In this document: one piece after another, positions 8,871 through 59,742 of the stretch | Layout: the number at the start of each line of letters is the position of its first letter | Position numbering within the stretch: position 1 is the first letter of the stretch | DNA from: a virus | Taxonomy: Duplodnaviria; Caudoviricetes | DNA length: 59,742 nt | IMG/VR virus record: IMGVR_UViG_3300008110_000054 | Coordinates: 1 to 59,742 of that record | Reading direction: 5' to 3' (one strand) | Program-made: the position numbers and the translations under genes | The notes under the pieces: generated by a model | Told to the model about the DNA's origin: nothing | The model's input: only the letters and a program-made list of their open reading frames with translations | The model's database searches: none

Positions 8871-8885
8871 GAGCTACTCTCCAAG

Positions 8886-11328: not shown

Positions 11329-11335
11329 GGCTTCC

Positions 11336-13926: not shown

Positions 13927-13938
13927 CACAAACGCCTC

Positions 13939-17753: not shown

Positions 17754-17758
17754 AGTTA

Positions 17759-41344: not shown

Positions 41345-41355
41345 GATTATTTCCC

Positions 41356-42717: not shown

Positions 42718-42731
42718 TTGCCATAAACCCC

Positions 42732-43679: not shown

Positions 43680-44113
43680 CCGACGTCAGTGTCGCCACCA
43701 ATAAGCACATCCCAAGTAGAATCGCCAGATCCTTCTGGTGTAATTTGAATGTATATCTTTCTAACAGGGTTGGTGTAGGTGCCGTCCTGGTTACGGAACG
43801 AACGACCTACGCTGTCAGAAATTTTGAGAAGAGTTCCAGCTGTACCAGACTGCTCTTCAAAAACAACATACATTTCTGGCGAAGACACGCACTTCAAAGG
43901 GCCTGAGCCGTCTACATCACCGATAGATGATGACGGCTCTCCACAGCCTTTGATTGAGTTGTAAACTGTGACCTTGAAATTAACCAAGGTTCCGCCAGTC
44001 TGCTGAATTAGAAGACGCTTGATATGGGCTTCTGGAGGAAAGCCGATTTCCCAGCAGTTAGCCTGGCCTTTGGTGGCATGCAGACTGCACAGTCTTCTTT
44101 CATAGATACGCAT
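43676..44113 (-). CDS. Hypothetical beta-rich protein
   Basis: AGGAG RBS, 145 aa. Confidence 0.6.
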   Translation of the reverse strand: MRIYERRLCSLHATKGQANCWEIGFPPEAHIKRLLIQQTGGTLVNFKVTVYNSIKGCGEPSSSIGDVDGSGPLKCVSSPEMYVVFEEQSGTAGTLLKISDSVGRSFRNQDGTYTNPVRKIYIQITPEGSGDSTWDVLIGGDTDVG

Positions 44114-44125
44114 TGGTGTCTCCTA

Positions 44126-46573
44126 TTAGTCAGCTGTGTCGCTGAGGTCACCGCTGAAGCCTTCTTCTGGGAATGGCTCAACAGTCTTCTGCTTAAGGAA
44201 CAGTACAACGTCGCCCACAGCTTCAAAAGCGTTTCTCAGAGACTCTTCCAGTTCTGGCATGTCGCGCTTGCCGTAGCGCTCTTGCATTTCATCTCCGTGC
44301 CAGTAGAAGCTGAACAGAATTCTACCAAGCCTGTCTACGCCTTTCATCAAGTCGCCAAGATACTTGTCCACGACAGAGTCACTACGAACGTTCTTTAGTA
44401 GTGAGCCGATCATGGTAGTGTCAAATACTTCCTTCTGGCCAGACTGTGCAGCTTGGTAGCCAAGAGCCATAGTCCTTGGGTCAGGCAACCGAGGGTCATA
44501 GATCTGCTCGTTACCTACCAAGTTAGCCGAAGTTGGAAGAACTGGCAGAGCTTCTTGCTGTGGGTAGATGGACTGAACGCTACCAAGCATGGTCTGCTCA
44601 AGACCAGAAGGAGGCGATGGGAAAGGAGGAGAGCCAGTGATTGACTGCATGGTCTGGTCGATTGGATCGCCAGGAGCAGCTTGCTTGGCAAACTCTACTA
44701 CATATTCAGGGAAGGCCACGCGGTAGTTGACTACCTTCTTGGCCTCTGCGTTGGCGATTACAGCCTTGGCCTGCTTCTCACGCAGCATGAAGTTCTGAAT
44801 CAGATGGGTCAGAGCGGCAATCTTGTCCATAGCCTTGCCGTTAATGCTGACTTCTGAGCCAGTATGGCGAACTTCCAAGCTGGAAGTCTTCTCAAAAATA
44901 GCCTTGTGTAGGTCTAGCTTGTTGCCATACTCCACAGCTGGCTTTTCGCTACGGTCGCCATGACCTTCGTAGTCCTTGGCTAGCTCGATTACCTTCATGC
45001 CCTTTGGCACATAAAACTCACCATGAAGGTTACGCATGCGCCCACCTTCTTTATTGGTGAAGTGCATAATGTCGGAGCAGCCGCAGCCGTAGCCTTCGCA
45101 GTCTACGCCATAACCCCAGTAAGTTTCCTTGTTACGATCTTCCAACTTAGGCAGGTGAGCTGGACGGTCTGCTGAGGACCAGTCCTTGAACTCTACCTTG
45201 AAGCTGGTTGAGGCGTCGTCTTCCTGAATCTTCTCTTTAACAAGGAAAGGAGTGGTTCCTTCCTTGCCAGGAGCGATAAGGATATACAGACCACCTTCTT
45301 TCATGGCGCTTGGTTCAGCGTCCTTGAGGCTGTCAAACAGCTCTTTGTATTCGTCCTTGTCTACGGCTTTTTCTCTGGTGACTAGGTTACCAGGATGGAT
45401 GTTAGTCCATTTCTTCTGGGAATCGTCTAGGTCGATAACAGTGGCAAAGTTTTTTGTGCCCTTGTTACCAACTGGTCCGTTGATTACCAGAGACTTGCAG
45501 AACGAACTGGGACGACAGAGTACGTCGTATATTCCAGTTTCTGTAGGACTTACTAGCTTAAGAGGCGTTTGGACCTCGTAAGCTATTGCGGTCTCTGGCC
45601 TTTCGTCGCGAACAGATATTCCGTCTGTAAGCAGCTCTTCTTTTTCTTTATCGGTTGGCTCAAAGCCAATACCACGCTGAGCCACAGTCTTAACGGTAAG
45701 AACGGCTACAGCTGCAGCCTTCTCACGCATGACTTTCTTTTCAACGTTGCCGTTGTAGGCTTCCATTACGCCCTTAGCGCGCTTTGGTGATTCGTCTTCT
45801 TCCTCTTCTCTATTTACTTGCTTCTGCTTTAGCCACTTAGGAGCCTTAGCTTCCTTTTGAGCAGCTTCAGCCATAGCTTGCTTGATGGTGTTCAGGTCGT
45901 AGAACTTGGAAATGGCTTCCCCGATAGCTGGGAACTGCTCAATACCCTTAAGCAGGCTGTGGACTACTTCCATACCAGCTTCTTTGAGGAAGTTAGGAAG
46001 AGTCAGGCCTTCTTCTGCTAGTGGGTTGCTAAGAGCGCAATAAGCAAAGGCAGCTTCGCCAGCTTCCATACCAGTAGCTGATGCAAACTTGGCTGGAGGA
46101 CGAGAGAAGGCCTGCAGGTCTGGAGACAGCACACCCAGACGCTGAAGGTTACGGTCAGTCTTGTCGCCCATTACGTTGGGACGACGCTGAAGGATGTAGT
46201 TCAGCCAGTTCTCTTTGAGAGGAACGAACTGATCCTGGTCTTTTAGATACAGAAGCTCTGTACCCTTCATGTCGCCATTAAGGAAAAAGACAGGAGCATA
46301 CAGCCACTGTCCACCAACCTTAAACCCAAAGATACCAATAGCTTTGGTGTTGTCTTCGTTACGATCCATCAGCTGGAAACCGACCTCATAGTCCAGCAGT
46401 GATGGAGCTTTGTCTTTAACAAAGGCGTGAGCCAAGTTAGAGAAAGCTTGTTCAAACTGAGTGTCGTTACCGTCGCCGCCTAGAGTAGCCTTTTTCTCGA
46501 AGATGGAAATACCATCATTCATCAAGGAACGGCACTCGTTTAGATGGCGTTGTGTTTCTTTTGAAAGGGGCAT
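44126..46573 (-). CDS. Large head-associated protein of unknown function
   Basis: 815 aa; GAGGTG RBS; N-terminal leader ending EKKA and internal KFAS/EKAA/EKTS/KQAA. Confidence 0.6.
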   Translation of the reverse strand: MPLSKETQRHLNECRSLMNDGISIFEKKATLGGDGNDTQFEQAFSNLAHAFVKDKAPSLLDYEVGFQLMDRNEDNTKAIGIFGFKVGGQWLYAPVFFLNGDMKGTELLYLKDQDQFVPLKENWLNYILQRRPNVMGDKTDRNLQRLGVLSPDLQAFSRPPAKFASATGMEAGEAAFAYCALSNPLAEEGLTLPNFLKEAGMEVVHSLLKGIEQFPAIGEAISKFYDLNTIKQAMAEAAQKEAKAPKWLKQKQVNREEEEDESPKRAKGVMEAYNGNVEKKVMREKAAAVAVLTVKTVAQRGIGFEPTDKEKEELLTDGISVRDERPETAIAYEVQTPLKLVSPTETGIYDVLCRPSSFCKSLVINGPVGNKGTKNFATVIDLDDSQKKWTNIHPGNLVTREKAVDKDEYKELFDSLKDAEPSAMKEGGLYILIAPGKEGTTPFLVKEKIQEDDASTSFKVEFKDWSSADRPAHLPKLEDRNKETYWGYGVDCEGYGCGCSDIMHFTNKEGGRMRNLHGEFYVPKGMKVIELAKDYEGHGDRSEKPAVEYGNKLDLHKAIFEKTSSLEVRHTGSEVSINGKAMDKIAALTHLIQNFMLREKQAKAVIANAEAKKVVNYRVAFPEYVVEFAKQAAPGDPIDQTMQSITGSPPFPSPPSGLEQTMLGSVQSIYPQQEALPVLPTSANLVGNEQIYDPRLPDPRTMALGYQAAQSGQKEVFDTTMIGSLLKNVRSDSVVDKYLGDLMKGVDRLGRILFSFYWHGDEMQERYGKRDMPELEESLRNAFEAVGDVVLFLKQKTVEPFPEEGFSGDLSDTAD

Positions 46574-46606
46574 AGCCGCACCTCAGATTAGTTGTTCCTA
46601 TTTAAA

Positions 46607-46635
46607 ACTCTATCGCTAATCAAAAATTGTGTCTA
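46607..46635 (-). promoter_or_regulatory. Candidate promoter TAGACA-N17-TAGAGT
   Basis: Intergenic, sigma70-like spacing, upstream of 44126-46573. Confidence 0.45.
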
Positions 46636-46645
46636 TACCGCAGCC

Positions 46646-47086
46646 TTAACCTACTTTAGCGTTAGCAGTGCTATTAGCAGGTGGTTGTATAGCAGGTGTT
46701 GGCGTATTAGGCTGTATAGGCGCGTTAGTAGGAGCTGGAGTAGCTTGAGGAGCTACTTGCCCAGGCCCTGCAGGCTGAGCTGGCGGTTTAGCTTGCTGGT
46801 TGTAGTTACCGAATCCTCCAGCAGTTAACGTCTGAAGGTTTTCACCACCTCTAAACATATCAAGCATTCCAGCCATACCTGGAATGCCTGCTACAGCACC
46901 CACACCTTTGAACAAAGGAGCTGCCATGCCCATGTAAGGCATCATGGACTTCATGTCCATGCCCTTAAACATGCCAGACCCTTGGTCGTACAAGTACTTT
47001 ATTATGGACATCAGATCGAACTCTGATGTCTTAACAAAGTTAGCAGCTGCTTCCTTTGCTAGTCTGTCTATTAACTGCTTGTCCAT
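46646..47086 (-). CDS. Candidate internal head protein (Met/Gly-rich, Pro/Gln tail)
   Basis: Leader ending KEAAANFVKTS; Cys-free; low complexity. Confidence 0.55.
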   Translation of the reverse strand: MDKQLIDRLAKEAAANFVKTSEFDLMSIIKYLYDQGSGMFKGMDMKSMMPYMGMAAPLFKGVGAVAGIPGMAGMLDMFRGGENLQTLTAGGFGNYNQQAKPPAQPAGPGQVAPQATPAPTNAPIQPNTPTPAIQPPANSTANAKVG

Positions 47087-47088
47087 GG

Positions 47089-49983
47089 TTACTTCTTTGA
47101 CTCTTTCTTTTTTGTTTCAGTTTCGCCAGCTGGCTTGCAGCTGTCTTCGCTGTATGGCTTCTTACCAGGAACTGGAACATAGCCTTTCCAGCAGCGAGCT
47201 TCTTTAAGTACGTTAGCCAATTTCTCAGAAGCGCTTCCGCATTTCCATTTGCGTAGAGCCTTGTTGATGCGGCTATCTGGATCGTTAGCGGTCTCCTCCG
47301 AAGTCAGCTTGGCCTTCATGCCTTTCATACGAGCGCAGAAGCTGTCTTTACGAGGACCGCCTTCAGGCTGAGGGCGCTTGATGTCGTGGCCTTGAGCTTT
47401 CAGGCTGGCTCTGCCCTTGTCGTTCAAGCCGCCAGACTCACTCTTGCCTTCAGAAGTCTGCCAGGCTGGAGCTGCTGTCTTCTCAGACTCTTCAGTTACC
47501 TTCTTCCAGTTCTTAGCGTCTGGGTAGTCCTTGTCTCCAGGCTTGGCTGGGGATTCTCCCCTTTGCCTTTTAGCATGAATATTTGCCCACAGCCCTGGCT
47601 TAGCAGCTGCGGCCTTTTCCTTTTTATCCTTAGTATCCTTTTTGGTTTCTTCTTTAGCCGTTTCCTCTTCTTCGGTAAACAGCTCTGGATAACTAGCGCG
47701 AATAGCGTCTTCTTTGGTGCGTCCTCGTAGCTTGTCATAGATTACTTCTGGCAATCCTCTAGGAAAGCTTCTAGTAATTCCTGTTCTGCGAGGATGGTTC
47801 CATCTAAAGCCCAGATAGGGGTTTACGCCAATTTCTGATCCAGGATCAGCGTTCACTCCTATTTGAAAACCTTTGTTAGGGCCTCCGATGTCTAGGCCTC
47901 CAATAGGAATAGGTAGAACGCCTAGCAGGTTTGTATACCCAAGCTCGCCACCCACACCTAGGCCTTTGGGATGTAGACCCAAGCTGCCGCCGCCCCAAGC
48001 AAGAAAAGCTTTTTTATCAGCAGCAGTCTTATCGCTAATTAGGGGTAGAGACTTCTTCAGGTCGCCTGAAGTAAGGATGCCGTAGTCTCTAAGCAGGTTA
48101 GCTGTAGCGAGAAGCTTCTTGTTTTTTTCTCTGGCAGACAGACCGCCTATAGCTGCGCCAGCGCCACCGCCAGCCAGAGCGCTGGTAGCGATGGTAGCTG
48201 GAGATCCTCCAGTTAGGTAGCTAAGAAGTCCCATTGGTACAGCACCAGCGAGGCCGTAGCCGATGGCTCGTCCTTTAGGGCTGGCTTTTACTTTGGCAAG
48301 ATTTAACTTGCCAGCTGGGTCTTCGTCGGATTTGCTAGCTATTTCGGAAGCTAGGTTCTCAAAGCCACCCCTGTCTACGCCGTACATTTTCAAATCTTCG
48401 TTGGTAGGTCTGGCAATAGCTCTAGCCTGCATAAGCATGTTTAGAGCGTGCCCCATAAGAGCACCTCTGCCACCTTGGGAAATGTCAGCCATAGAAGACA
48501 GATTCAAGTTGCGAGCTTGCTTTTGAGACGCAGCCTTACGAATTTTTGGCTTTTCTTGGCTGTCTGATTCTTCTTTGGCTTTTCTTTCTGCTTCTTGGTC
48601 TTCGAGCTCTTGACCCTTACCAGCTGCCATGCCCAAGACTTTACCAGCCACCAAGCCAGGAAGCGGCATTCCCATGGTCAGACCGCCAAGATAGCTGCCG
48701 AAACCTGCTGGTAGCACTTCCCAACGTCTCTTAACTCGTTCCTTGTATTCTGGCGAGTCTTTGCCTAGAACTTCTTCAAGTGCTCTGTGACTTAGCTGGT
48801 TAGCCCTGGCTTCCTGTAAAAGCATAGACACTGGATTAAGCCCGTAGCTTACGGAATACAAATCGTGAGCTAAGCCTTTGGCTTGCCTTTTCAAAAACCC
48901 ATCATCTTTAGAGCCTGGCCTTATGCCGTACAGCCTGTTGTGGTCCAAAGCGTGGCCTAGTTCGTGCTGTAGGATAGCGTGTTCGTTTGCGTATTCGCTG
49001 ATAGTATCGGTAACTGGGTTGTAGTGAGAACCTCTAACCAACGGAGTAGTCAACGACGCTGCAAGAACACCAGGAGCGCCTAGCAGTTTAGAAATTAAAC
49101 CTGTTTTCTTATTGTGAAAAGTTCTACCACCAACTCTCTTGTACCAAGGGTCGTTTTCGCCTCTGTTCTTCTTCCAAATCAAATCATCAATTAAATTGGT
49201 ACCGCCTAACCTGACTACGGTGTCAGAAAGAGCTTCTGGATCATACTTAGCTATAGTTTCTGCTTCTTCTTTGTTTTTATTGAATTTTTCTTCATCTTTC
49301 CAGAAAATGCCTTTTCTAGAAGGGTCTACATAAGTGTTCTTTGAAAGAAGAAGGTTAGGCAAAGACCCAGGATTAACACGACCAACTGTGCTGGCTACCA
49401 ATCTGCTAATTGGGCCGCCTTCTTCTACATACAAAGCTTTTTTCTGCAACTCAGCTGCCTTTTTACCCATGAATCCAGCGATAGTGTTGTATACAGGATC
49501 GATACCGCCAGCGGCTGCGCCCAGACCACCACCGAGTAGACCGCCAGTTAGAGCGCTTGAGAGCAGCCCACGCTTCTTTTTCTTGTTGCCTTCTTCGTCT
49601 TCGTCACTACCGAACATGCTGCTAAGAGCACCAATGCCTGCTCCACCTAGCATGCCAATACCCGCGCCGCCCAGTGCTCTAAGGGCGCGCAATCTGTTTT
49701 CTCTGCTTAGATTGTTAGTCATGAAGTTAGTAGCTGCTTGTGGGAGCATACCAGCTACAGTGCCTTCAAAGCTGTCTAACTTCAAAGGACGTGCGTCAAT
49801 GGCTTTGGCTTTGTCAGCAATGCTTTTACCGAAACCCTTAATGTTGTCAAGCAAGCCTTGAGTTACTTGTGGCCCTAACTTGCTTGCGTTATTCGCAATG
49901 TTAGTGCCAGTCTGCACAGCTTTAGTAATGGCTGGGATGCCTAGGCTAACGGCTGCTGGAAACAAAGCTTGCTTGTCGTTCAT
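47089..49983 (-). CDS. Modular internal head polyprotein: Gly zippers, HExxH zincin-like domain, small C-terminal modules
   Basis: ILQHELGHALDH plus downstream EARAN; GLWANIHAKR, SFCARM..KALRKWKC and CWKGY modules; KxA linkers. Confidence 0.7.
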   Translation of the reverse strand: MNDKQALFPAAVSLGIPAITKAVQTGTNIANNASKLGPQVTQGLLDNIKGFGKSIADKAKAIDARPLKLDSFEGTVAGMLPQAATNFMTNNLSRENRLRALRALGGAGIGMLGGAGIGALSSMFGSDEDEEGNKKKKRGLLSSALTGGLLGGGLGAAAGGIDPVYNTIAGFMGKKAAELQKKALYVEEGGPISRLVASTVGRVNPGSLPNLLLSKNTYVDPSRKGIFWKDEEKFNKNKEEAETIAKYDPEALSDTVVRLGGTNLIDDLIWKKNRGENDPWYKRVGGRTFHNKKTGLISKLLGAPGVLAASLTTPLVRGSHYNPVTDTISEYANEHAILQHELGHALDHNRLYGIRPGSKDDGFLKRQAKGLAHDLYSVSYGLNPVSMLLQEARANQLSHRALEEVLGKDSPEYKERVKRRWEVLPAGFGSYLGGLTMGMPLPGLVAGKVLGMAAGKGQELEDQEAERKAKEESDSQEKPKIRKAASQKQARNLNLSSMADISQGGRGALMGHALNMLMQARAIARPTNEDLKMYGVDRGGFENLASEIASKSDEDPAGKLNLAKVKASPKGRAIGYGLAGAVPMGLLSYLTGGSPATIATSALAGGGAGAAIGGLSAREKNKKLLATANLLRDYGILTSGDLKKSLPLISDKTAADKKAFLAWGGGSLGLHPKGLGVGGELGYTNLLGVLPIPIGGLDIGGPNKGFQIGVNADPGSEIGVNPYLGFRWNHPRRTGITRSFPRGLPEVIYDKLRGRTKEDAIRASYPELFTEEEETAKEETKKDTKDKKEKAAAAKPGLWANIHAKRQRGESPAKPGDKDYPDAKNWKKVTEESEKTAAPAWQTSEGKSESGGLNDKGRASLKAQGHDIKRPQPEGGPRKDSFCARMKGMKAKLTSEETANDPDSRINKALRKWKCGSASEKLANVLKEARCWKGYVPVPGKKPYSEDSCKPAGETETKKKESKK

Positions 49984-50008
49984 GGTTAAACTCCAAATGT
50001 ATTCCTAT

Positions 50009-50038
50009 ATCTTAGCAGTGAGTTAAACTATCTATCAA
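50009..50038 (-). promoter_or_regulatory. Candidate promoter TTGATA-N18 (or TAGATA-N14)-TAAGAT, TG-extended
   Basis: AT-rich intergenic gap upstream of the polyprotein gene. Confidence 0.4.
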
Positions 50039-50045
50039 TTGTTAA

Positions 50046-51953
50046 TCAAAGAACGCCAGTGCTCTCGTTAGGCTTAGCTATTTCTTTAGGGTCAAAGCCT
50101 TTTATTTTTCCGCTTTGACCGAAACCTACAGACTTGGCTAGAGAAGGTACAAAAGATGTACCAGACTCATCAGCTATGCCTCCAGCCCACACGCTTTTTA
50201 GCGTGCCCTTCTGTAGATTGGACCCCAACATTCTTGTCATCCAATCTGGATCATACTGCAAATTGTCCAAACCTCGCAAGAAGTGAGGCTCAAATGGAGG
50301 AGGCTCTTGGTGAGCTGTAACCTCCTTAATGCCAAACTCATCTAGTTCCTTGATTACTGACGGCGTAAGCCTGGTACCTACGCTGTAGTGAAGAGTAGGT
50401 CGTTCTAGGTATCGGTTACGAAGATTCTTGGGTGCGCCAACTTGATAACCGTCTCTAGGCTTCCAGCTGCGCTCAAACATGTCATAAGGAATCACATCTT
50501 CTGGCATGTTCTCCCCAACTTCGTCAGTAAGACGAATATGGTTGATAAGCCCTCTGGAGAGAACTTCTATATTACGTCTGTTAGCTCCAAGCCCAGCATC
50601 TTGCATGGACTTCCTGAAAGCATTAACAAACTGCCTTCGGCCTTCGCCTAGTCCTTTGTGTCTTACGAACTCCGCTGGGTTTGGTACACCGTCAGTCAAT
50701 ATGTCCCCAGCTTCTACCTCATCTCCAACTTTGTAATTTATTGCAGCGTCAGGGTTTACGTAATGCTGCATGCCTTTGATAGTTAAAAAATAGCCGCCTG
50801 TTGGAGCTGGCTTGATCTCGTCAATCTTGCCGTCTGCCTGAGCGTGGGTAGCCCAGTACGGAGATTGCTTTGGAGATTGAATTAGCTGGTTAAGGACTTT
50901 AAACCCAGAGATGGACTTACCACCAGCCACGCCACCTGAGTGTTTGGAAGATAGAGTGCCTTGGCTGATAGGCTCGCCTAGCGCTTGCGCTGCAGCGATG
51001 CCAACAAAGTCGCCAGTCCCAGGAAGGCCGCCACGTTCACGTATTCCCACATCTCTCGCATACAGCCCACCGTCTGGTGATCCCATAGCTACAGGACTTC
51101 TGACAGCTATTCTCTTAACGCCAAGGTCTTGAATAGCCTTCATTACCTTGGGAGTAAGAACTGTATTTCTTTTATAGGGACCCACTGGAATAGCTAAAAG
51201 AGCGCCTTCGTTATCTGGGTCGTCTACGTCTACTGGCATGCCTCTGGTAGCCGCGTACTCGTCATCTTCAGCGTCCCTGCCTGTGACGATTAGTCTGTGG
51301 CCTAGCTGGTTAAGTTGTTTGGAGAAAAACCCAGAGTGCTGTACAGCAAACTTGGTATCTACCACACCCTTACGAGCGCCGAAGCTGCCAGCAAAGTACT
51401 CAGCTGGAGTAAGCCCAGAGCTAAACGAGTTAAGCACTGGAATAGGAATGGCTCTATCACGGTGATCGGTGTAGAGCAGGTCACCGCCACGTAGAGACTT
51501 GAGGTTACCAGGTTTACCTCTAGAGCCTGACAATACCTGAAGAGCCAAGGGGTTCTGCTCAGCCTTGGACTCTTCCATAATGTCTTTTTCTAGCTTTGAC
51601 TGGTAGCCGAGCACAGTCTCGATAATTTTGTCGTTTTTAGCCTTATCGTCAAGAAGTGGGTTGCGCTGAATGTCTCGAACTTTAGCTTTTATTTCTAAAT
51701 TAGCTTTCTTAGCTGACACAGCTGTGCTGAGAGAGTCCAAACCAAACGAGAAGCCACCAGTTGTATAGGCTACATCTCTGCCTACATCAAACATTTTCTT
51801 TAGAACTGGTCTGTAGTTGTCTGGATCGTTCTCTGCTATGTCCTGAAGAATTTTCTGTACGGTCTTACCGTCCATAACGCGATTGTAATCGCGGTACTTC
51901 TCTGGAAGCGCCTCGTTTACAAGGAGTTGTCCTATGGTGGCTTTAACTGGCAT
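50046..51953 (-). CDS. rpoC: RNA polymerase beta' subunit, C-terminal half (bridge helix, trigger loop, jaw)
   Basis: ATIGQLLVN, SGSRG, F.SGLTPAEYF.GS.GARKGVVDT, VRSP, GIAAAQALGEPISQGTLSSKHSGG, V.AGD.LTDG, RNIEV. Confidence 0.96.
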   Translation of the reverse strand: MPVKATIGQLLVNEALPEKYRDYNRVMDGKTVQKILQDIAENDPDNYRPVLKKMFDVGRDVAYTTGGFSFGLDSLSTAVSAKKANLEIKAKVRDIQRNPLLDDKAKNDKIIETVLGYQSKLEKDIMEESKAEQNPLALQVLSGSRGKPGNLKSLRGGDLLYTDHRDRAIPIPVLNSFSSGLTPAEYFAGSFGARKGVVDTKFAVQHSGFFSKQLNQLGHRLIVTGRDAEDDEYAATRGMPVDVDDPDNEGALLAIPVGPYKRNTVLTPKVMKAIQDLGVKRIAVRSPVAMGSPDGGLYARDVGIRERGGLPGTGDFVGIAAAQALGEPISQGTLSSKHSGGVAGGKSISGFKVLNQLIQSPKQSPYWATHAQADGKIDEIKPAPTGGYFLTIKGMQHYVNPDAAINYKVGDEVEAGDILTDGVPNPAEFVRHKGLGEGRRQFVNAFRKSMQDAGLGANRRNIEVLSRGLINHIRLTDEVGENMPEDVIPYDMFERSWKPRDGYQVGAPKNLRNRYLERPTLHYSVGTRLTPSVIKELDEFGIKEVTAHQEPPPFEPHFLRGLDNLQYDPDWMTRMLGSNLQKGTLKSVWAGGIADESGTSFVPSLAKSVGFGQSGKIKGFDPKEIAKPNESTGVL

Positions 51954-51976
51954 ATCTGTGTACCCGCGTGTAGTAT

Positions 51977-52387
51977 TTAAGCCAGAGCTTGAGCAGCTTC
52001 TTTTTTACTTATTATGCCAAGAGCAACCATAGCCTGAACACCAGCAATTGTTCTTGGATCTGTTAGAACAATCTCGTCAGCTGCCAACATCTTGTCATAC
52101 CACAATTTAACTAAGTCGTTTGATTTGGTGGCTGTAACTACTTTTAGTTGAGTTTCTTGGCTAAACCTTTCCATAAACTGCAGTGAAGACAGCTTCTCTA
52201 CCCCACTAGACGGTGGGGCAGGAAAGTCTAGACCTAGCAAGTCTATTTGCGCTTCGCACTCTTCTTCGGTAGCAGCTTCAAAAATGCTATGTATCGATTC
52301 AGTCAACCCTTCTGACTCAAATAGTGATATAACAGTGCTGCCGTCGTGAACAAGACGCCAACTTTTTGCTGGACCAACTACAGGCAT
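51977..52387 (-). CDS. Fibre-associated small protein (chaperone-like)
   Basis: LS.LQF.ERF......I.L.DPRT..G...L...GI pattern commonly seen after phage fibre genes. Confidence 0.5.
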   Translation of the reverse strand: MPVVGPAKSWRLVHDGSTVISLFESEGLTESIHSIFEAATEEECEAQIDLLGLDFPAPPSSGVEKLSSLQFMERFSQETQLKVVTATKSNDLVKLWYDKMLAADEIVLTDPRTIAGVQAMVALGIISKKEAAQALA

Positions 52388-52402
52388 CGCTAATACTCCG
52401 TA

Positions 52403-53980
52403 CTAGTTGTGCGTTACAGTACAGCCTCTTGCCACCAGCGTCGCCTTGGCAGCAAGACCTGTGGCTGAAGGGGTAGCGCTTGTACCACCAGATAGGTTAA
52501 CCGTTCTGCTGCTATAGGCAGGGTATGGAGCGTTGTTAGTTCCATCCATATAAGCCAACGCTACGAGAATGCCATCGACAGAAGCTTGGTTAAGCGCAGC
52601 TCCTGTGCATATAAAATTACCGCCATAATTCATTGGAGTTTGTTTAACTGTAAAAGTCGTCAGGGCAGCGCAGTTTGTTACATTGAAAGAAATGCTATTA
52701 GACGCGCCAGCAAATTCTAAGTTAGGCAGGTTTATAGTTGTCAACATAGGTGAGTTTGTTACAGCGAACTGGCCTCCGTCAGTAGTGTAGCCAGTTGGAG
52801 TAGTTGAAGAATTGTTTGCCCAAGTAGGCTTCACCAGACCCCATTTTGTAAAGCTAGGTAAGCTTATAGTGGTTAAAACATTAAACGTTATTGGACTGTT
52901 CTGCCCTGCGCCAAAAGGCGAATTAAGTGTTTTTTTCAATAATGGAAAATTCATAGAAGTGAGGTAAGGCGCACTTGCCCAAAACCCTGTTGTGTAGTTA
53001 GCAATGCTGCCAGTGTACAGCAACTTAGGAAAGTTTAGAGTTTGAGCATAGACATGGTTAAGAATCATACCTCCAAAATTATGTAAAAGCTCAGGAAAAG
53101 AAATGCTTACAAGAGAAGAAGACGCGCCGAGGTAAATTGAATCTGCTGCTTTTAACTTAGGAAAATTAACAGTAGTTAAAGACGGAAATAGATCCGCTGT
53201 GCCTGCAAAATTGGTAATTTGAATTTCGCCTAATTCGGCTTCTGGTGCTGAAACCGACTGCACTACAGAATACGTGTTATACAAGTATACTTTGCAAAAT
53301 TTTGCTTTTGGAATACTTATGTTTTGAATAAATTTTCCAGTATTATTACCAGTTCCAGCGTATAAAAATACTTCCTCGGCTTCTGGAATACTTATTGACG
53401 CAAGCCTAGGACAGTTATTGTTGTTTAGATATATTTTTTTGGCGTTTGGAAAAGAAAGAGATGTTAGGTTATAAAATTCATAAAAATTTCCTGAAAATTG
53501 GTCTAATAGCCAAGTAATGCTTGTAGTATTTGAAGTTTGATCGTGATCTGGTTGTGCTTGAAAAGTAACATTTCCGCCAATTTTTCCGTTAAGACTATTT
53601 TGCTGTAATTGTTGAAGCCCGTACAAAGGCTGATTCCAACCGCTATATGAAAGCTGCCCATTGTAATAGCATCTGAATAATTCTATGTTTGGATTAGTTA
53701 TGGCTGGAGTGATTTGAAAAGCTCCAGAGCTGCCAAAACTAGATACTCCGTTACTTATAACCTCAGCAATAGACGCTTTACCAGCCACGCCAGTCGTAGC
53801 GTCGTTTACTATCAAGGTGTCTTGAGGTACAGGCGTTTTAGTTGTCAGCTGAGATCCAGTGTTTAGTATTTGAGCTGCCGTGCTTTTGCCAGTCTGCCCA
53901 TTAAACGGATCAGCCACTGCCAACACATCTGTAGATGATGGTGTTCTGGGAGCCAACTCATTAATTGGTTTTACTGCCAC
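52403..53980 (-). CDS. Beta-solenoid (LRR-like xFPxL repeats) fibre/receptor-binding-like protein
   Basis: Repeats SLSFPNA, TVNFPKL, SISFPEL, LNFPKL, MNFPLL, INLPNL; duplicated N-terminal anchor; C-terminal LNQASVDGIL...LVARGCTV. Confidence 0.65.
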   Translation of the reverse strand: MAVKPINELAPRTPSSTDVLAVADPFNGQTGKSTAAQILNTGSQLTTKTPVPQDTLIVNDATTGVAGKASIAEVISNGVSSFGSSGAFQITPAITNPNIELFRCYYNGQLSYSGWNQPLYGLQQLQQNSLNGKIGGNVTFQAQPDHDQTSNTTSITWLLDQFSGNFYEFYNLTSLSFPNAKKIYLNNNNCPRLASISIPEAEEVFLYAGTGNNTGKFIQNISIPKAKFCKVYLYNTYSVVQSVSAPEAELGEIQITNFAGTADLFPSLTTVNFPKLKAADSIYLGASSSLVSISFPELLHNFGGMILNHVYAQTLNFPKLLYTGSIANYTTGFWASAPYLTSMNFPLLKKTLNSPFGAGQNSPITFNVLTTISLPSFTKWGLVKPTWANNSSTTPTGYTTDGGQFAVTNSPMLTTINLPNLEFAGASNSISFNVTNCAALTTFTVKQTPMNYGGNFICTGAALNQASVDGILVALAYMDGTNNAPYPAYSSRTVNLSGGTSATPSATGLAAKATLVARGCTVTHN

Positions 53981-53990
53981 GGCACAATCC

Positions 53991-54215
53991 TCAGATTGTT
54001 ATTTCTTTGACTTCATTGCGTTGTTCTATGCCGAACTGCTTGAGAAGTCTTTTAAATTCTTCGTTCTCACCAGGCTTAGCTTTATAGACAGCTATGGTGT
54101 TGTTGTCGTATTCAATAGCCAAAAGAATAGGCTGGCCAAAGTTATCCTTTATGACCAGCCTATTCGCTTCTACTGATACTGAGTTGAACAAGCCATTGTT
54201 AAACTCAAGTTTCAC
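53991..54215 (-). CDS. Small hypothetical protein
   Basis: GAGGT RBS, GTG start, fills the gap. Confidence 0.55.
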   Translation of the reverse strand: MKLEFNNGLFNSVSVEANRLVIKDNFGQPILLAIEYDNNTIAVYKAKPGENEEFKRLLKQFGIEQRNEVKEITI

Positions 54216-54217
54216 GT

Positions 54218-54925
54218 TTACCTCTTTCTGCTTAGAGCATTCAGCATGTGACGAGCAGCTTCTGCCTTCTCTGACAAGCTAGCCTGTTTTCCACCAATCG
54301 GCTCAATTGGCTTGATTGGAGAAATGCCAGAGATGTCAGAAGCTGTAGGAGGAGCTTCTTGCTTGCCTTCTCCACCTTCAGCGCCTTCTTCAGGAGCTGC
54401 TGGCTTGTCAAGAATGTTGTAAGGAAGGCTTAGGCCCAGACTTTCGTACAGATTGATAAGCAGCTTCTGCTGCCTTTCCATGTACTCAAGCAACTGAGCT
54501 GGGTCCACCTTGGCAGAGCCTTTGCTCTTAGGCTTGCCACCGTTCTCACCACCGCCAGTCATAGCCTTCTGGATTTCTTCCTGAATCAGCTGCTTGATCA
54601 TAGCTGGATCAGTGCCAGAAGGAGGAGCTGGGGGTGCGCCACCCATAAGGGATGGGTCCATGGGAGGCATGGGAGGCGCACCACCCATAGCGGCTGGATC
54701 CATTGGAGGAGCCCCACCCATCATTGCTGGGTCCATGGGAGGAGCGCCGCCCAGCATAGCTGGATCCATAGGAGGAGCGCCGCCTGGAGACATTCCACCC
54801 ATAGCTGCTGGATCCATGGGAGGCGCACCACCTGCTGGAGGAGCGCCACCGCCTGGAGGAACAAAAGCTTGCTTGGAGGCCAGAGCTTGCTTTACGTTCC
54901 TAATCAGAATTGAGTTAAGAGGCAT
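54218..54925 (-). CDS. Pro/Gly/Met low-complexity candidate head protein
   Basis: Leader MPLNSILIRNVKQALASKQA followed by GGAPPMDPA repeats. Confidence 0.65.
   Translation of the reverse strand: MPLNSILIRNVKQALASKQAFVPPGGGAPPAGGAPPMDPAAMGGMSPGGAPPMDPAMLGGAPPMDPAMMGGAPPMDPAAMGGAPPMPPMDPSLMGGAPPAPPSGTDPAMIKQLIQEEIQKAMTGGGENGGKPKSKGSAKVDPAQLLEYMERQQKLLINLYESLGLSLPYNILDKPAAPEEGAEGGEGKQEAPPTASDISGISPIKPIEPIGGKQASLSEKAEAARHMLNALSRKR
54620..54853 (-). repeat. Degenerate coding tandem repeat GGAPPMDPA(A)M, about 33-36 bp unit, 5-6 copies
   Basis: Repeated ggatccat/gggtccat-ggga-ggcgc elements; peptide repeat visible in translation. Confidence 0.85.
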
Positions 54926-54939
54926 GTGTTTCACCCTTC

Positions 54940-56055
54940 TTAGTAGTTGCGACCGCCTGAAGTCCTAGCTGGAGGCACAGCCAAAGAACCAGCGTTACTT
55001 GGAATTACCGCATTAGTGACATTTTTCAAAACGTTAACAGGCGGCGCTGCTGGTCTGCCAGGAGCATTACGATTGTAGCTAAAACCGCCTGCGCCCATGC
55101 CGCCAGTCGCTTGGCCTACTGCTTTTGCTATAGGTGAGTTTATAGCGTCAAGAGTAACACGCTTACCTTGGTCGGCTGCGTTACCTGCTGTAAAAGCAGC
55201 AGCGTCGTAGGCATTGCTAGCGGCATTTTGAATACCCACTCCAACGTTGCCAGCAGCGTTTACTACGTTATTGGCAGCGTTAGAAACTAGGTTTCTAGGG
55301 TTGATTGAATAAGGGTCAGTGTTTGACCCAAAGCTAGGACCAACGCTGCCTGCAGTAAGCGGCACAGTGCCTTCTGTCAGCGATCTAAACTGAGGAGCTG
55401 GTCTGAATGGAATACCTCTGTCGTAAGGCTTGGGGGTTGGCGCTGAGGGAGCTGCTTTAGGGGTTTGCGCAGCTGCCATCTGAGCGCGAATATTTCTAGC
55501 TTCTTCAATAGCCTTGTCCATTGGAGAAGGGCCTTGAGGAATTTTTGCTCTAGAAGCAGCCATCTGCTGTTCTTGATGCTGCCTATAGGCCGTAGGACTA
55601 ACTGGTTGAGTAGCTGGAGCTGCAGGGGCTACGCGCTGTCCAGGTTTAATGCCTAGCGACCCAGCGTCTCCACCAGCTACATAAGCAGAAGCTGCGTTTT
55701 GGTCTGGGGCGTAGAACACTTCGCCAGTCTGAGAGTGGCGGAAGCGCTGCATGCCTGCTGGAGCTGGCTGATACATAGCTCTGCTGGCTGCAGTATCTTC
55801 AGAAGGCAAAGGACCTTGGTCATATGGACTTGAAGGAGCCTGGACTGGAGCCTGCGCTGGAGCTTGAGCTGGAGCAGCGGCTCTTTGTTGATTAGCGTAA
55901 TAAGCCTGCCTTCTACCAGGAAGAATAGGCACACCTCTTGGACTTATAATCCCAAAAGGACCAGCCAACTTTATTAAGCCTATCTCTGTGCCTGCTCTCT
56001 TAGCGTTAAGACAAGCTTGTTTTACATGACCAATTAGCTTTTTGTCGATTGCCAT
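54940..56055 (-). CDS. Ala/Pro/Gln-rich candidate internal protein ending GGRNY
   Basis: CAGGAG RBS before MAIDKKLIGHVKQA; disordered composition. Confidence 0.65.
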   Translation of the reverse strand: MAIDKKLIGHVKQACLNAKRAGTEIGLIKLAGPFGIISPRGVPILPGRRQAYYANQQRAAAPAQAPAQAPVQAPSSPYDQGPLPSEDTAASRAMYQPAPAGMQRFRHSQTGEVFYAPDQNAASAYVAGGDAGSLGIKPGQRVAPAAPATQPVSPTAYRQHQEQQMAASRAKIPQGPSPMDKAIEEARNIRAQMAAAQTPKAAPSAPTPKPYDRGIPFRPAPQFRSLTEGTVPLTAGSVGPSFGSNTDPYSINPRNLVSNAANNVVNAAGNVGVGIQNAASNAYDAAAFTAGNAADQGKRVTLDAINSPIAKAVGQATGGMGAGGFSYNRNAPGRPAAPPVNVLKNVTNAVIPSNAGSLAVPPARTSGGRNY

Positions 56056-56083
56056 CGTAGTCTCCTGTGTAAGGCGTGAATAC

Positions 56084-56112
56084 ATTATTGCTCAGAAGTA
56101 CCTAGCTGTCTA
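56084..56112 (-). promoter_or_regulatory. Candidate promoter TAGACA-N17-AATAAT
   Basis: Intergenic; shares AGACAGCT with the candidate at 34668-34694. Confidence 0.4.
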
Positions 56113-56124
56113 TAACGCTTGATG

Positions 56125-57246
56125 CTAGTAGTTTCTGCCACCGCCTACTGGCTTGGCTGTAGAAACAGCAGGCAAATTAGGAGTTACAGGCTTGGGAGCA
56201 GACTGCTGAACAGGAGCAGCTGGCTTAGCTGCGTTAACGTCAGTTCTGCTAAACCTTCTGTCCAACATAGGTGCGCCTGCGTCCATATGGGAAGCTGGGC
56301 TGTATGGGATGTTAGGTTTGGTAGCAGGCTTGTTTGGGTCTACCCGTGGGTAGAAGCCTCCGTATCCTCTGTCAGCGTATGGAAACGCTTTTAAAGAATT
56401 AGCCGCTGTTTGCCCTAAGGTCGTTGGTAGTGAGTTTGTTACTACAGGCTTAGAGGGCGTAGCGTAACCCATTACTGCTCTTAATGGCAAAGACGAGGCC
56501 CAGGCTGTAGGGCCGTAACCCCATCTTCCTTCAGAATTTCGCAATTTTTCAATATTGTCTCTATAGTTTTTAAACTTGCTATGCGCTTCTTCATAGGTAA
56601 CGTTGGGGTTTTTTCTCATATAATGAGTTGCTGCGTCTATTCCACTAATATATAACTTTTGACCTATTGCGTTGTTTACTTCTTTCAAGGTTTGTGGAAT
56701 TTCTTGTAACTTTTTCTTAAAAGGGTAAAAAGTATTATTGTACCATTCGTTGTCTCTCATCATATTAGTAGCATTACGCCAGTCTGTGCCTCTAGGAGCA
56801 TCCCCAGTTTGGTATTCGTAATAGCGTTCTGCTAGGTCTTGTGGGTCAATAAGATTAGCGTCACGCATTAAAAAGTCTAAATTACGTTCTGGTTTTATTG
56901 TTTCTTCGTATTCTTTCATAGCCTCAGGTACGTCGTTAAAATCTTGGCGAGGTCTGAGGTTGTATTTTTCCCTAAGATTTCTCATTAACGAGTAAGGATT
57001 AGGCTGGGTGATTGGTACGTCTTTCCAGTCTGCCTCCAGCTTGTCCTTAGCCCTATCTTTTAAAAGACGTTCAGTAACGTCTCTGCGCATGCCGCTTTGA
57101 GGATCAATAGCAGCTGGCTGCTCTGGCTCCAAATACTCAGGCCTAACATAAGGCTTTTCTCCTGTTACTTCTTCTGGAGGCACAGGAGCAGCTAGCTTGT
57201 GCATGGCTTTTTTAATTTGACCAATAAGCTTGTAGTTAAAAGCCAT
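56125..57246 (-). CDS. Candidate internal protein ending GGRNY
   Basis: MAFNYKLIGQIKKAMHKLA leader; Cys-free; Pro-rich tail. Confidence 0.65.
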   Translation of the reverse strand: MAFNYKLIGQIKKAMHKLAAPVPPEEVTGEKPYVRPEYLEPEQPAAIDPQSGMRRDVTERLLKDRAKDKLEADWKDVPITQPNPYSLMRNLREKYNLRPRQDFNDVPEAMKEYEETIKPERNLDFLMRDANLIDPQDLAERYYEYQTGDAPRGTDWRNATNMMRDNEWYNNTFYPFKKKLQEIPQTLKEVNNAIGQKLYISGIDAATHYMRKNPNVTYEEAHSKFKNYRDNIEKLRNSEGRWGYGPTAWASSLPLRAVMGYATPSKPVVTNSLPTTLGQTAANSLKAFPYADRGYGGFYPRVDPNKPATKPNIPYSPASHMDAGAPMLDRRFSRTDVNAAKPAAPVQQSAPKPVTPNLPAVSTAKPVGGGRNY

Positions 57247-57256
57247 AACCAAGTCC

Positions 57257-59742
57257 TCAATTCAATATCACTACTTTCTGGTCTGACTCAATTTCACCGT
57301 TCTTATAAGCTCTTATTGCGTCAGCCTTTGTAGCAAAGTATCTCTCTGGTTTATTAGACACGAAAGCTGTGGCGTGATACAGACCACCTTGGTACTCGTT
57401 CTTAGGCAGCTGGTGAGCCTTGAAGTTCTTGGTGCTCAGCAGGTTCTTGCTGGGCAGCATCTTCTCAAGAGCGTCCTTAACAGCTCCGTCAGAGACAGGA
57501 ACGTGATAGTTCATCGTGTCTCCATCGAAGTCTGCACCAAAGCCAGTAACGATAGCTGGAGGAATCTGTAGAGTCTCAGCCTTGGTCAGCTGGGGCCTGA
57601 ATGCCATTACGCCATACCTGTGAAGCACAGGTGCGCGAGTGATGATAACTGGACGCTCGTCCATCTCCTGTAGCAGAGCGTCCTTAGCTGCCTTATCCTT
57701 CTGCTCTACTAGCTCAGCAGCTCTAATAGGGGCAACGCCTCTACGCGCCAACCTTCGTACGATGAATGGCTTGTAGATTTCCCAAGCCTTGCTCTCAGGC
57801 AGACCTACTTGGTCCATGTCCAAGTCTGGGTTAGGTGTAATAACACCTCTACCCACCACGTCTACAGTCGTACTAAGCAGCTTGCGCTGCATGGTGGAGA
57901 ACTTGGGGTTATCTCCAAAGATGTACTTGAGTACGCCTTTGACCTGCCTCTCCTGGTTCTTGGGGCTTACTGGATCCCCCAACCCAGTAACAGCCTTGAA
58001 GCTCTTATAGAGCGCAGTACGCTCATCGCTTAAGTTGTTGCTGAAACCTGAAGTTTCTTTTAGCGCTTCGTTAGCCTCAAACGCCTCTTTGTACAGATAG
58101 TTGGCATCTGCTACGAGGGGCCTGCCTGTAGCTCCCATGACGGACACAGGCCTGAAAGCTGGAGGAAGAACAGGAATCTTGTCCATCATCCATTCCGATG
58201 GGCTTAGTCCAAGCTTGGCCGAATGCTTGAGCACAGACCAACGCTTGAGGGCAGCATCCTTTGTGGACTTTCTGCCATTACGCCATTCGTACTCAGCTTC
58301 TCTGGTAGCTTTCTCTAGGTTTATATTACTAAGCGCGTTCTTGATGGCTTGTGGGCCAGTCTGGTCGCCAATCGTGTCCTTACCAGCAAGAATATCCATG
58401 AACTTGTTCTTGGTAAGGCCCAGCACTCTGCGGATAGGCTCTTCCATTACTGGATTAGGCATGGGCTCATGAAGCTTGATGTAGCTCCATTGATTGCCTC
58501 CATGCCCACCAGTAAGGGATGGATCAAACAGACCACCCTTGATTGGCTTCAAGCCTTCTTTCCAATCAACAGTCTCAGCAGATGTGATCTCTCTGCCTTT
58601 GGCTAGTTCATCAATGTCTTTATTAGTTAAGGCCATGATCTGAATACGAGGTCCGTTTCTTACTGGGTTGATACCAGCAGAGCGAAGCTGATTGAAGAAC
58701 TTGCCATACACCAAAGGAATCTTTGGTGGTGGGGGAGTCTTGCCAGCCATGAAGCTAGCCCAGTAATCCTGGTTCTTCTGCCCACGAATAGACTTGGCGT
58801 CTGTAATGACTTCCAGAGCGCCGTGGCTGAGCAGAGCATTCGTATCAGCAAGAGATACTCTCTTACTGCCCTGAGGCCCACCCTTGGCTGGAGTGTCTTC
58901 TGCTGTATAAGAACCAAGACCACGGCCAGAGCCTTTGCTCTCAGCCATGTGGTGTAGCTTCATGAAGAAGCGATTGCCTGTGAATACGTTCTTTATCTTT
59001 CTATTGCTGTCTGGGTCTTCTACATCTTCAAGGTCTTTCAGGCCGTGCTTCTTGAGTTCGTCTTTTGCGAACTGCACCATGTCCTTGATGTCAGAGAAAT
59101 CTTTGACAGCGTATCGTTTGCCAGTCTTCTCCGCGATCTTACCTAGAGCAGCCTCGACCATTTGGCTTGGATTAGTTCTGGAAATGATACCAAGGGGGTT
59201 GACCAACACTTCAAAAGGCCTGCCTTCTGAATCCTTGGGCATCTTGTCATCTGGAATGATGTCAGCGATAACGCCCTTGTCGCCATAACGACCAGATAGC
59301 TTGTCAGCTACCTTCATTTCTGAGTAGCCTTTGACAGTAACAAGCATACCTTTTTTGGTTTTTTCTACGTCTGTAACTACGCCTGGGTCATCGTGCTCCC
59401 AAGTGATGCTGGAATCGTTGTATAGTTGACCTCTCGACCTACCAATCTGATTGTGCGCTCTTTCTTTTTCTTTTATCTGAAGAATAAGAGGCATATCTTT
59501 GTGTACTACAGTTCCTGGCTTAACAACGCCATCGTCGTCTAGTGTCTCAAGAACTTTTCGGTCATATGAGCTTGGGAACATGGAAATGTAGTTCTTCTTT
59601 CCGTGCTTTAGGCCCTCTTCGAACTCAGTGTCATGTTGATACATGTGCTCAGAAGCTAGCTTTTTAGCTGCTGACTGAGAGATGACAATAGCGTCTTCAA
59701 AGTTAGCGCCCTTGTATGGCACATAAGCCGTACGCAAGTTTA
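57257..59742 (-). CDS. rpoBC: RNA polymerase beta (C-terminal part) fused to beta' (N-terminal catalytic half); 5'-partial
   Basis: Beta motifs GANFEDAIVIS, DKLSGRYGDKGV, NPLGIISRTNPSQ, FMKLHH; in the same frame beta' motifs ET...KP..GGLF, PVLPP.FRP, RAPVLH, GADFDGD; frame stays open to the window edge (..N-L-R-T-A-Y). Confidence 0.97.
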   Translation of the reverse strand, partial: NLRTAYVPYKGANFEDAIVISQSAAKKLASEHMYQHDTEFEEGLKHGKKNYISMFPSSYDRKVLETLDDDGVVKPGTVVHKDMPLILQIKEKERAHNQIGRSRGQLYNDSSITWEHDDPGVVTDVEKTKKGMLVTVKGYSEMKVADKLSGRYGDKGVIADIIPDDKMPKDSEGRPFEVLVNPLGIISRTNPSQMVEAALGKIAEKTGKRYAVKDFSDIKDMVQFAKDELKKHGLKDLEDVEDPDSNRKIKNVFTGNRFFMKLHHMAESKGSGRGLGSYTAEDTPAKGGPQGSKRVSLADTNALLSHGALEVITDAKSIRGQKNQDYWASFMAGKTPPPPKIPLVYGKFFNQLRSAGINPVRNGPRIQIMALTNKDIDELAKGREITSAETVDWKEGLKPIKGGLFDPSLTGGHGGNQWSYIKLHEPMPNPVMEEPIRRVLGLTKNKFMDILAGKDTIGDQTGPQAIKNALSNINLEKATREAEYEWRNGRKSTKDAALKRWSVLKHSAKLGLSPSEWMMDKIPVLPPAFRPVSVMGATGRPLVADANYLYKEAFEANEALKETSGFSNNLSDERTALYKSFKAVTGLGDPVSPKNQERQVKGVLKYIFGDNPKFSTMQRKLLSTTVDVVGRGVITPNPDLDMDQVGLPESKAWEIYKPFIVRRLARRGVAPIRAAELVEQKDKAAKDALLQEMDERPVIITRAPVLHRYGVMAFRPQLTKAETLQIPPAIVTGFGADFDGDTMNYHVPVSDGAVKDALEKMLPSKNLLSTKNFKAHQLPKNEYQGGLYHATAFVSNKPERYFATKADAIRAYKNGEIESDQKVVILN

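Follow-up and report, generated by a model that had tools for sequence, protein, structure and literature searches.

A predicted RNA polymerase without cysteine and without structural zinc sites in the structural gene region of a large Arash-related phage

To our knowledge, phages that begin infection with an RNA polymerase (RNAP) of their own are so far known from the N4-like, crAss-like and phiKZ-like groups, and their enzymes are quite different. Here, an RNAP was analyzed that is encoded in a window of 59,742 nt from a virus of the Caudoviricetes, the window being the whole stretch of DNA under study (IMG/VR record IMGVR_UViG_3300008110_000054, positions 1 to 59,742). The genome record is the window itself, with a CheckV completeness of 29%, and it is the structural region of a ∼190 kb phage related to Salmonella phage Arash. 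Judged from its sequence, the enzyme is a two-polypeptide RNAP without an alpha subunit, which keeps its catalytic residues, has neither thiols nor zinc sites and is accompanied by a sigma factor encoded in the same window. On balance, a holoenzyme free of cysteine (Cys) and zinc is best explained as a virion component that is delivered together with the DNA.

Multisubunit RNAPs are generally taken to have structural zinc in beta′, and this zinc is regarded as relevant to assembly. The N-terminal zinc-binding domain of beta′ has been called common to all multisubunit RNAPs (PMC7618050), and a literature search that covered papers without their supplements returned none on a multisubunit phage RNAP lacking any Cys or lacking both zinc sites. 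When phage records were searched by tblastn, the window proteins matched Salmonella phage Arash and the Vibrio phages D181, D148 and D69, which have the same two-gene layout. The Arash locus resembles the window in the split into two genes, the beta-beta′ fusion, the order relative to the capsid gene and the sigma gene in the tail module; its zinc-binding domain is likewise deleted and its proteins are almost free of Cys. However, the identity is only 23–32%, as it is throughout these phage matches, and Arash keeps a four-Cys second zinc site that is replaced in the clade of the window. In addition, the RNAP gene of Arash comes after that of the portal; in G001, a 192-kb IMG/VR relative of the window, a distance of 60 kb separates it from the portal homologue; a helicase adjoins the gene for the C-terminal part of beta′ (beta′C) in Arash but not in the window.

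The virion RNAP of N4 (gp50) is also delivered with the particle and contains 0 Cys in 3,500 amino acids (aa), compared with 13 Cys in 673 aa for N4 RNAPII, so that the precedent named in the first-pass annotation of this DNA was borne out. Cys suppression is reported to be kept across the ejection proteins of the Schitoviridae, and an idea cited in the same source holds that passage through the periplasm selects against Cys (PMC11445570). The likeness ends there: gp50 is a non-homologous, single-subunit, T7-like enzyme of a podovirus (named also in PMC11445570), and N4 has a separate non-virion RNAPII, whereas one RNAP per genome is detectable in the five genomes searched here.

The virion RNAP of phiKZ (gp178, gp149, gp180 and gp80) is closer in kind, being multisubunit, beta/beta′-like and annotated as structural head protein. 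The division of the phiKZ genes between a virion and a non-virion RNAP is one that we take to be correct, in part from the ‘structural head protein’ notes of the record. The non-virion beta′ N-terminal protein (beta′N) of phiKZ keeps a CxCx12CxxC motif and the non-virion beta′C a Cx8CxxC motif; the virion beta′N has two scattered Cys and no zinc-binding-domain motif, and the virion beta′C has four Cys with second-site-like spacing, probably a second zinc site. The phiKZ enzyme differs from that of the window in being made of at least four polypeptides, in standing beside a second RNAP and in having no sigma, according to PMC7824862, and it was absent from the tblastn hits of the window proteins. 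By its sequence features the window RNAP is not classed as phiKZ-like: one beta′ domain was found per genome (5/5), a sigma factor is present, a single split lies inside beta′, and beta and beta′ are fused. For the non-virion enzymes a zinc ribbon is reported (PMC7824862); the zinc-binding domain is described as kept in the non-virion RNAP of phiKZ and absent from that of AR9 (PMC7618050), an enzyme compared here by its description, which is multisubunit like that of the window and reportedly shares the missing domain. Metagenomic tailed-phage contigs with beta and beta′ genes, some of them >200 kb, have been assigned to an RNAP-encoding Caudovirales lineage (‘mReC’), to which the window enzyme probably belongs; the words virion, zinc, packaged and sigma do not occur in that paper (PMC7481178).

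Identity of the polymerase and the state of its zinc sites

All 50 long open reading frames (ORFs) of the window are on the minus strand, as are all window features given below. The ORF at 57257–59740 encodes a fusion of beta (C-terminal half) with the N-terminal part of beta′ (beta-beta′N); 827 aa are visible, its 5′ end being cut by the edge of the window, and the full-length protein of relatives has ∼1,480–1,490 aa. Among Pfam families it matched Rpb2_6 (153 bits, above the cut-off, E 1.4e-44) and Rpb1_2 (E 1.4e-22; 81 bits, with the cut-off at 25.3), and there was a weak match to Rpb1_1; because of these matches it was read as an in-frame fusion. It also matched beta′ entries of the PDB (E 1e-50) and showed 80% identity to a 1,486-aa ORF of G001. 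The ORF at 50046–51953 (635 aa) encodes the C-terminal part of beta′ with the bridge helix and trigger-loop region, as indicated by Pfam Rpb1_5 (70 bits, above the cut-off, E 2.6e-19) and by PDB beta′ matches (E 2e-34). The catalytic motif ADFDGD, with the Mg-binding aspartate triad of beta′, was located at 57518–57535 and is intact in the HMMER alignment, where GADFDGD (residues 735–741 of the ORF) aligns to the active site of Thermus beta′. The two zinc sites and alpha aside, all sequence criteria place the enzyme in the bacterial-type beta/beta′ family.

Neither RNAP ORF contains Cys in its visible part (827 + 635 aa), which agrees with the first-pass annotation apart from a count of 826 for the first. 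The probability of 0 Cys in 1,462 aa is 2.2e-6 at the Cys rate of the window (0.887%; 172/19,396 residues) and 2.7e-9 at the overall rate of G001 (1.34%).

The loss of both beta′ zinc sites, claimed in that annotation as well, was supported by alignment. With E. coli beta′ residues 1–560 as reference, the scar of the deleted N-terminal zinc-binding domain, GLFDPSLTGGHGGNQWSYIKL, was placed at 58472–58534 (about 58470–58537 in the annotation); it follows the pattern GLFD..TGGHGG..WSYIKL, in which TGGHGG bridges the deletion. The segment that holds C70, C72, C85 and C88 in E. coli is missing from the window and from all 10 relatives aligned (10 of 25 homologous loci, including Arash and D181). 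At the second site, the scar VRSPVAMGSPDGGLYARDVG lies at 51045–51104, where E. coli C888, C895 and C898 align to M, Y and D, and the position of the first ligand lies at 51258–51287, where C814 aligns to the Ala of VTGRDAEDDE; the four ligands accordingly read A/M/Y/D. Among 117 of 120 relatives (the intein-bearing P0002, P0016 and P0104 left out), the corresponding columns, which were read against Arash with the E. coli correspondence taken from separate alignments, were variable (A, D, S, E, H and others), variable again (G, S, T, M and others), nearly constant (Tyr in 109, Phe in 5, Leu in 2, Trp in 1) and invariant (Asp in 117). Residues of this kind do not make a plausible metal site, and the invariant Asp with the near-invariant Tyr suggests a conserved replacement contact. 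In Arash and D181, beta′C has exactly four Cys, which align to the second-site ligands of E. coli, and beta-beta′N has one. Since these two phages have no zinc-binding domain and retain the second site, the domain was lost before the split and the second site later, in the lineage of the window.

The sigma-70-family factor is encoded at 16923–17789, in the tail/baseplate module, and contains no Cys (288 aa as listed; 276 aa from an internal Met in the database cluster). It was called from a Sigma70_r3 match (25.7 bits against a cut-off of 25.3), a hit to the PHROG sigma-factor family phrog_351 (E 8.5e-11) and homology to Arash gp10 (E 2e-15). The Sigma70_r3 match is syntenic in 5/5 genomes, and homologues bear r3, r4 or HTH_24 domains; sigma regions r2 and r4 were undetected in the window, in G001 and in the genome G002. 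All 120 of the homologues listed are free of Cys (0 in 31,554 residues). The protein is classed as an initiation factor of the sigma-70 family and may bind this RNAP.

No match to the alpha-subunit family PF01193 was found in any of five genomes, including the window with its 29% of a genome, although the family was found in 14/14 control genomes; the phage RNAP might use the alpha subunit of the host. One beta′ active-site domain was found by Pfam search in each of the five genomes, which makes this RNAP the only one detectable in the phage. A SNF2-family helicase follows beta′C directly in G001 (118635–120113; L038:635–2113) and in Arash (gp217; L001:21262–22680), with 0 Cys in 492 and 472 aa, respectively; it is absent from the corresponding position of the window. 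Like RapA, this helicase may act as an ATPase associated with the RNAP, as has been suggested for jumbo phages (PMC7824862).

Conservation of the cysteine-free state and distribution of cysteine

In IMG/VR, 23 related loci with 44–80% identity were found on contigs of up to 192 kb. Within the protein, beta-beta′N is without Cys in 21 of the 23, L004 having one and L020 two; in a few frames Cys is confined to the first 18 stop-to-stop residues, upstream of the likely start. A beta′C frame is present in 17 of the 23 loci, and there Cys is confined to the 7 residues at the start of the stop-to-stop frame. The most distant of these relatives (L019, L020 and L021; 44–45% identity in beta-beta′N) showed no beta′C homologue within 10 kb downstream, and in D181 the region of a homing endonuclease gene splits beta-beta′N into pieces of 533 and 1,014 aa (L003, 9072–14586).

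Two protein databases were searched with beta′C, of which one gave 1,271 hits (E ≤ 1e-10) and the other 4,345 representatives (E ≤ 0.001); the clade is large and environmental, with contigs of up to 231 kb. Counts were made on 270 sequences among the matches listed, in the part aligned to the window protein, and yielded 84 Cys in 168,981 aligned residues. Sixty-four of the 270 have Cys in the aligned part, and 58 of these carry internal inserts with the Cys at the insert junction. Among insert-free proteins, 200 of 206 have no Cys in the aligned part and the remaining six have one each; for insert-free beta-beta′N representatives the figure is 97 of 106 (10 Cys in 156,200 aa). The check named in the first-pass annotation, whether homologues are Cys-free too, came out positive for most relatives of both subunits. 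The inserts themselves contain Cys at an ordinary level, with 434 in 23,453 residues (1.85%) for beta′C and 94 in 5,488 (1.7%) for beta-beta′N, and belong to Pfam intein or homing-endonuclease families where families were listed. Because inteins are excised before maturation, they serve as a control within the gene, and their normal Cys content indicates that selection acts on the mature polypeptide and not through base composition or codon use. These comparisons indicate that the mature protein is strongly selected to be free of Cys.

Both an alternative genetic code and a broad avoidance of Cys codons were rejected as explanations, because the frames are open under table 11 and Cys is used at normal levels in neighboring genes and in inteins.

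Inserts of >100 aa occur in 64 of 270 beta′C and 14 of 120 beta-beta′N relatives (for example, P0002, P0016, P0104 and P0123; P0393 and P0394). Those of beta′C cluster at residues ∼201–210 and 334–335, the second position being in the trigger-loop region, and every insert starts with Cys. A C-terminal extension of beta′C, from 200 to >1,000 aa long, is present in 111 of 270 relatives (for example, L016, L022 and L023; P0121–P0270); it is of low complexity, rich in Pro, Ala, Gly, Met and Asn, with a coiled-coil-like end and 45 Cys in 68,100 aa. Six of the 111 extensions were tested and gave no informative Pfam family, one having DUF5661/DUF4269, and no ORF of the window matches them, the window beta′C being the short form. 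In a few relatives, NUDIX or zinc-ribbon-like additions take the place of the extension.

Within the window, 12 of the 50 ORFs are free of Cys. The 12 baseplate/fibre ORFs at 2–13929 contain 96 Cys in 4,610 aa (2.1%), compared with 76 in 14,786 aa (0.51%) elsewhere. The statement of the first-pass annotation that several neighbors are also Cys-free while baseplate and fibre proteins are Cys-rich stood for the sigma factor, for the major capsid protein (35589–36527; phrog_2522; 32% identity to the Arash major capsid protein gp226 and 96% to that of G001) and for a tape-measure candidate (20820–24461; 1,213 aa, 6.3% Met). The candidate was named from its position between the sheath and baseplate wedge genes and had no family match. 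The putative hub named there (17759–19432) also has 0 Cys and matched no family. The sheath (29342–32104; phrog_279) has 1 Cys in 920 aa.

For a genome-wide count, G001 (93% complete by CheckV) was used to stand in for the phage of the window; its RNAP shows 78–80% and its capsid protein 96% identity to those of the window, and its gene order is collinear. Cys amounts to 1.87% in the left arm, 1.75% at 71.7–101.3 kb, 0.45% in the RNAP/head module, 1.39% in the tail/baseplate region and 1.59% at the right end. When ORFs of ≥300 aa were tallied, the Cys-free ones numbered 0 of 17, 1 of 8, 8 of 14, 2 of 20 and 0 of 6 in these regions, respectively. Non-structural genes have ∼1.8% Cys. A depletion general to non-virion genes, which the first-pass annotation had named as counter-evidence to packaging, was therefore not found in this near-complete relative, as distinct from the phage of the window itself. 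The only other Cys-poor block of G001 consists of fibre genes with collagen triple-helix repeats (57791–71670; L037), far from the main tail module; it comprises nearly Cys-free fibre genes of 516, 853 and 2,032 aa and a 1,031-aa ORF.

Packaging in the virion and competing explanations

Evidence from particles is available for Arash. In mass spectrometry of Arash particles, Gp206 (beta-beta′N) was detected most (128 unique peptides; 3,516 spectra), and Gp216 (beta′C) was the fifth most-detected, with 40 peptides and 1,210 spectra; the SNF2 helicase Gp217 gave 38 peptides and 1,148 spectra and the sigma factor Gp10 gave 24 peptides and 467 spectra, compared with 32 peptides and 877 spectra for the portal and 30 peptides and 1,333 spectra for the major capsid protein (PMC10585845). 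Of these four transcription proteins, Gp206 has 1 Cys and Gp216 has 4, precisely the ligands of the second site, while Gp217 and Gp10 have none. A further sigma of Arash, gp196, contains 3 Cys and is missing from both the text and the table of the same paper (PMC10585845), and the Arash helicase gp197 has 9. Packaging of the RNAP in Arash is probable. In the window, the genes for capsid, sheath, tail and baseplate lie downstream of the RNAP genes and in the same orientation, an arrangement collinear with that of G001, Arash and D181. Given the homology and synteny with Arash and the shared purge of Cys, it is fairly likely, by analogy, that the RNAP is also packaged in the virion of the window’s phage.

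Natural and engineered beta-beta′ fusions are functional in bacteria. In the window, both RNAP polypeptides and the sigma have been purged of Cys, and beta′ has given up both structural zinc sites while keeping the catalytic aspartates; assembly may depend on the beta-beta′ fusion in place of an alpha platform. On the preferred explanation, the holoenzyme would be synthesized late and packaged in the head. It would then persist for long outside cells, enter together with the DNA and transcribe the earliest phage genes. Being free of thiols and metal, it would be immune to oxidation or zinc loss in the particle, and its refolding after the narrow tail channel would need no zinc. For the phage of the window, we infer late expression of the RNAP genes, and packaging, ejection, unfolding and refolding, and a role in early transcription, are likewise proposed from the comparisons above.

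Several observations weigh against this explanation. The particle evidence is transferred from Arash, which lies outside the close clade of the window’s phage, and the Arash preparation contained 116 proteins, including ribonucleotide reductases and kinases, for which its authors allow carry-over of abundant intracellular enzymes (PMC10585845). The phiKZ virion RNAP has 16 Cys in 2,614 aa (0.61%), compared with 33 in 2,850 (1.16%) for the non-virion enzyme. Some homologues of Arash structural proteins in the window contain Cys (7 at 44126–46573 and 9 at 38954–40432), as does the portal homologue of G001, with 7. Promoter-like and terminator-like sites in the window were not commoner than in shuffled sequence, which leaves a late operon without such support. 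A second, very divergent RNAP could have escaped the Pfam search. Finally, a non-virion enzyme, that of AR9, is also without the zinc-binding domain, so that this loss need not go with packaging.

The first-pass annotation had gone further and treated the loss of Cys and of both zinc sites as a signature of packaging, which is not reliable in view of the 16 Cys of the phiKZ virion RNAP, the second site kept in Arash and D181 and the non-virion AR9 enzyme without the domain. Such loss is neither necessary nor sufficient for packaging; it raises the odds and gives no proof. The zinc-binding domain is missing from the virion enzymes of two lineages and also from one non-virion enzyme. As a correlate of packaging, Cys depletion relative to intracellular proteins is found here, is complete in N4 and is partial in phiKZ.

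The enzyme could be packaged and yet owe its state to long extracellular exposure to oxidizing conditions, in which oxidation of zinc-bound thiolates releases the metal, with no relation to unfolded passage through the tail or to the periplasm. We regard this as somewhat unlikely. Depletion does reach proteins that are never ejected, for the major capsid protein has 0 Cys, the sheath has 1, and collagen-like fibres of G001 are Cys-poor too. The four-Cys site of the Arash and phiKZ virion RNAPs implies that a zinc site is compatible with delivery; that Arash retains it speaks against a metal-free enzyme being strictly required. A contractile tail would also carry ejected proteins inside its tube, so that the argument from periplasmic disulphides in podoviruses (PMC11445570) may apply less. 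However, the most exposed proteins, those of baseplate and fibres, are Cys-rich (2.1%), so that exposure alone does not bring about a purge, and the purge is most complete in proteins expected in the head or tail lumen, that is, the RNAP, the sigma and the tape-measure candidate. If, on the other hand, the RNAP were an ordinary intracellular enzyme that is not packaged, the loss could stem from zinc scarcity, from a host defence aimed at thiols or zinc, or from assembly free of host factors. The breadth of the Arash preparation and its distance from the clade of the window, the state of the AR9 enzyme and the single RNAP per genome, which must also work in the cell, are in line with such an origin. 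It is nevertheless improbable, because other intracellular enzymes have normal Cys contents (1.87% in the G001 left arm; in Arash, 11 in ribonucleotide reductase alpha, 9 and 5 in helicases and 13 in TerL), because the RNAP genes sit among structural genes, and because the four Arash transcription proteins gave 24–128 unique peptides, within the range of portal and capsid, where carry-over candidates gave from 2 (Gp197) to 11 (Gp27).

An ancestral or neutral Cys- and zinc-free state without adaptive meaning would fit the description of the beta/beta′-encoding Caudovirales lineage as deeply branching (PMC7481178), but it is highly improbable. Almost the only Cys left in Arash and D181 are the four second-site ligands, which points to stepwise loss; near-zero Cys over >300,000 aligned residues at 45–100% identity needs purifying selection, the inteins being undepleted; and sigma, an unrelated protein, has been purged likewise.

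Tentatively, and with a little less than even confidence, a sigma-dependent machine (beta-beta′N, beta′C and sigma, in some phages with the SNF2 ATPase) may have evolved to be free of thiols and structural zinc for storage, tail passage and cofactor-free reactivation; it would be the first natural multisubunit RNAP without structural zinc, and a large clade would import its own holoenzyme. Should the enzyme be packaged, widespread environmental phages of ∼180–230 kb would begin infection with their own sigma-RNAP holoenzyme. If so, the ‘deep branching’ of the RNAP could partly reflect unusual constraints and not age alone, and the constraints on Cys and zinc bear on the use of RNAP as a deep phylogenetic marker. 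A large natural clade with both sites replaced would indicate that the fold is held without metal, and a naturally Cys-less RNAP could be used in labelling and refolding studies. A complete purge of Cys, with Cys in inteins as control, may also offer an inexpensive way to predict, from sequence alone, which proteins exit the cytoplasm within the particle.

Genes around the polymerase and in the baseplate region

Five ORFs without clear family lie between the beta-beta′N and beta′C genes. The only one kept in relatives (54218–54934; 238 aa, 0 Cys, 0 Trp) encodes a protein of Met/Pro/Gly repeats, with APPMDPA(A/M)MGG repeats, and had matches in 7 loci, including 60% identity to G001 111739–112518. 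Two low-complexity ORFs rich in Pro, Ala and Gln (54940–57252; 381 and 375 aa, with 1 and 0 Cys) share a C-terminus GGRNY and a KLIGxxKxA-like N-terminus; no relatives of them were found in the related loci, and the GGRNY C-terminus is absent from all ORFs of those loci. An insert specific to the window (51977–53980) contains a 525-aa ORF with 6 Cys and a 136-aa ORF with 1 Cys. It was unmatched in 25 related loci and showed a weak match to phrog_34853 only; the 525-aa ORF (52403–53980) is repeat-rich and, by eye, leucine-rich-repeat-like.

Low-complexity, Trp-free proteins rich in Met, Pro and Gly are thus encoded beside the RNAP genes at 54218–54934, 46646–47086 and 54940–57252, with 0–1 Cys each; they have no family match and may be internal head or ejection proteins. 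Most ORFs of the head module had no match in PHROGs or Pfam. Many of them have, by eye, an amphipathic N-terminus of the form ..L..(I/L)..(V/A)KQA..A.. (window 40442–57252; G001 110612–128321), which could be a shared targeting or cleavage signal.

Toward the other end of the window, a baseplate wedge gene was assigned at 14339–15991 (phrog_6). A subtilase is encoded among the baseplate/fibre genes at 12817–13929 (Peptidase_S8, E 9e-59; phrog_3677). The fibre/baseplate ORFs at 3144–3923, 3923–5605 and 7917–8870 share an N-terminus containing YPF or YPL and a weak mutual similarity, and their Cys content reaches 6.4%.

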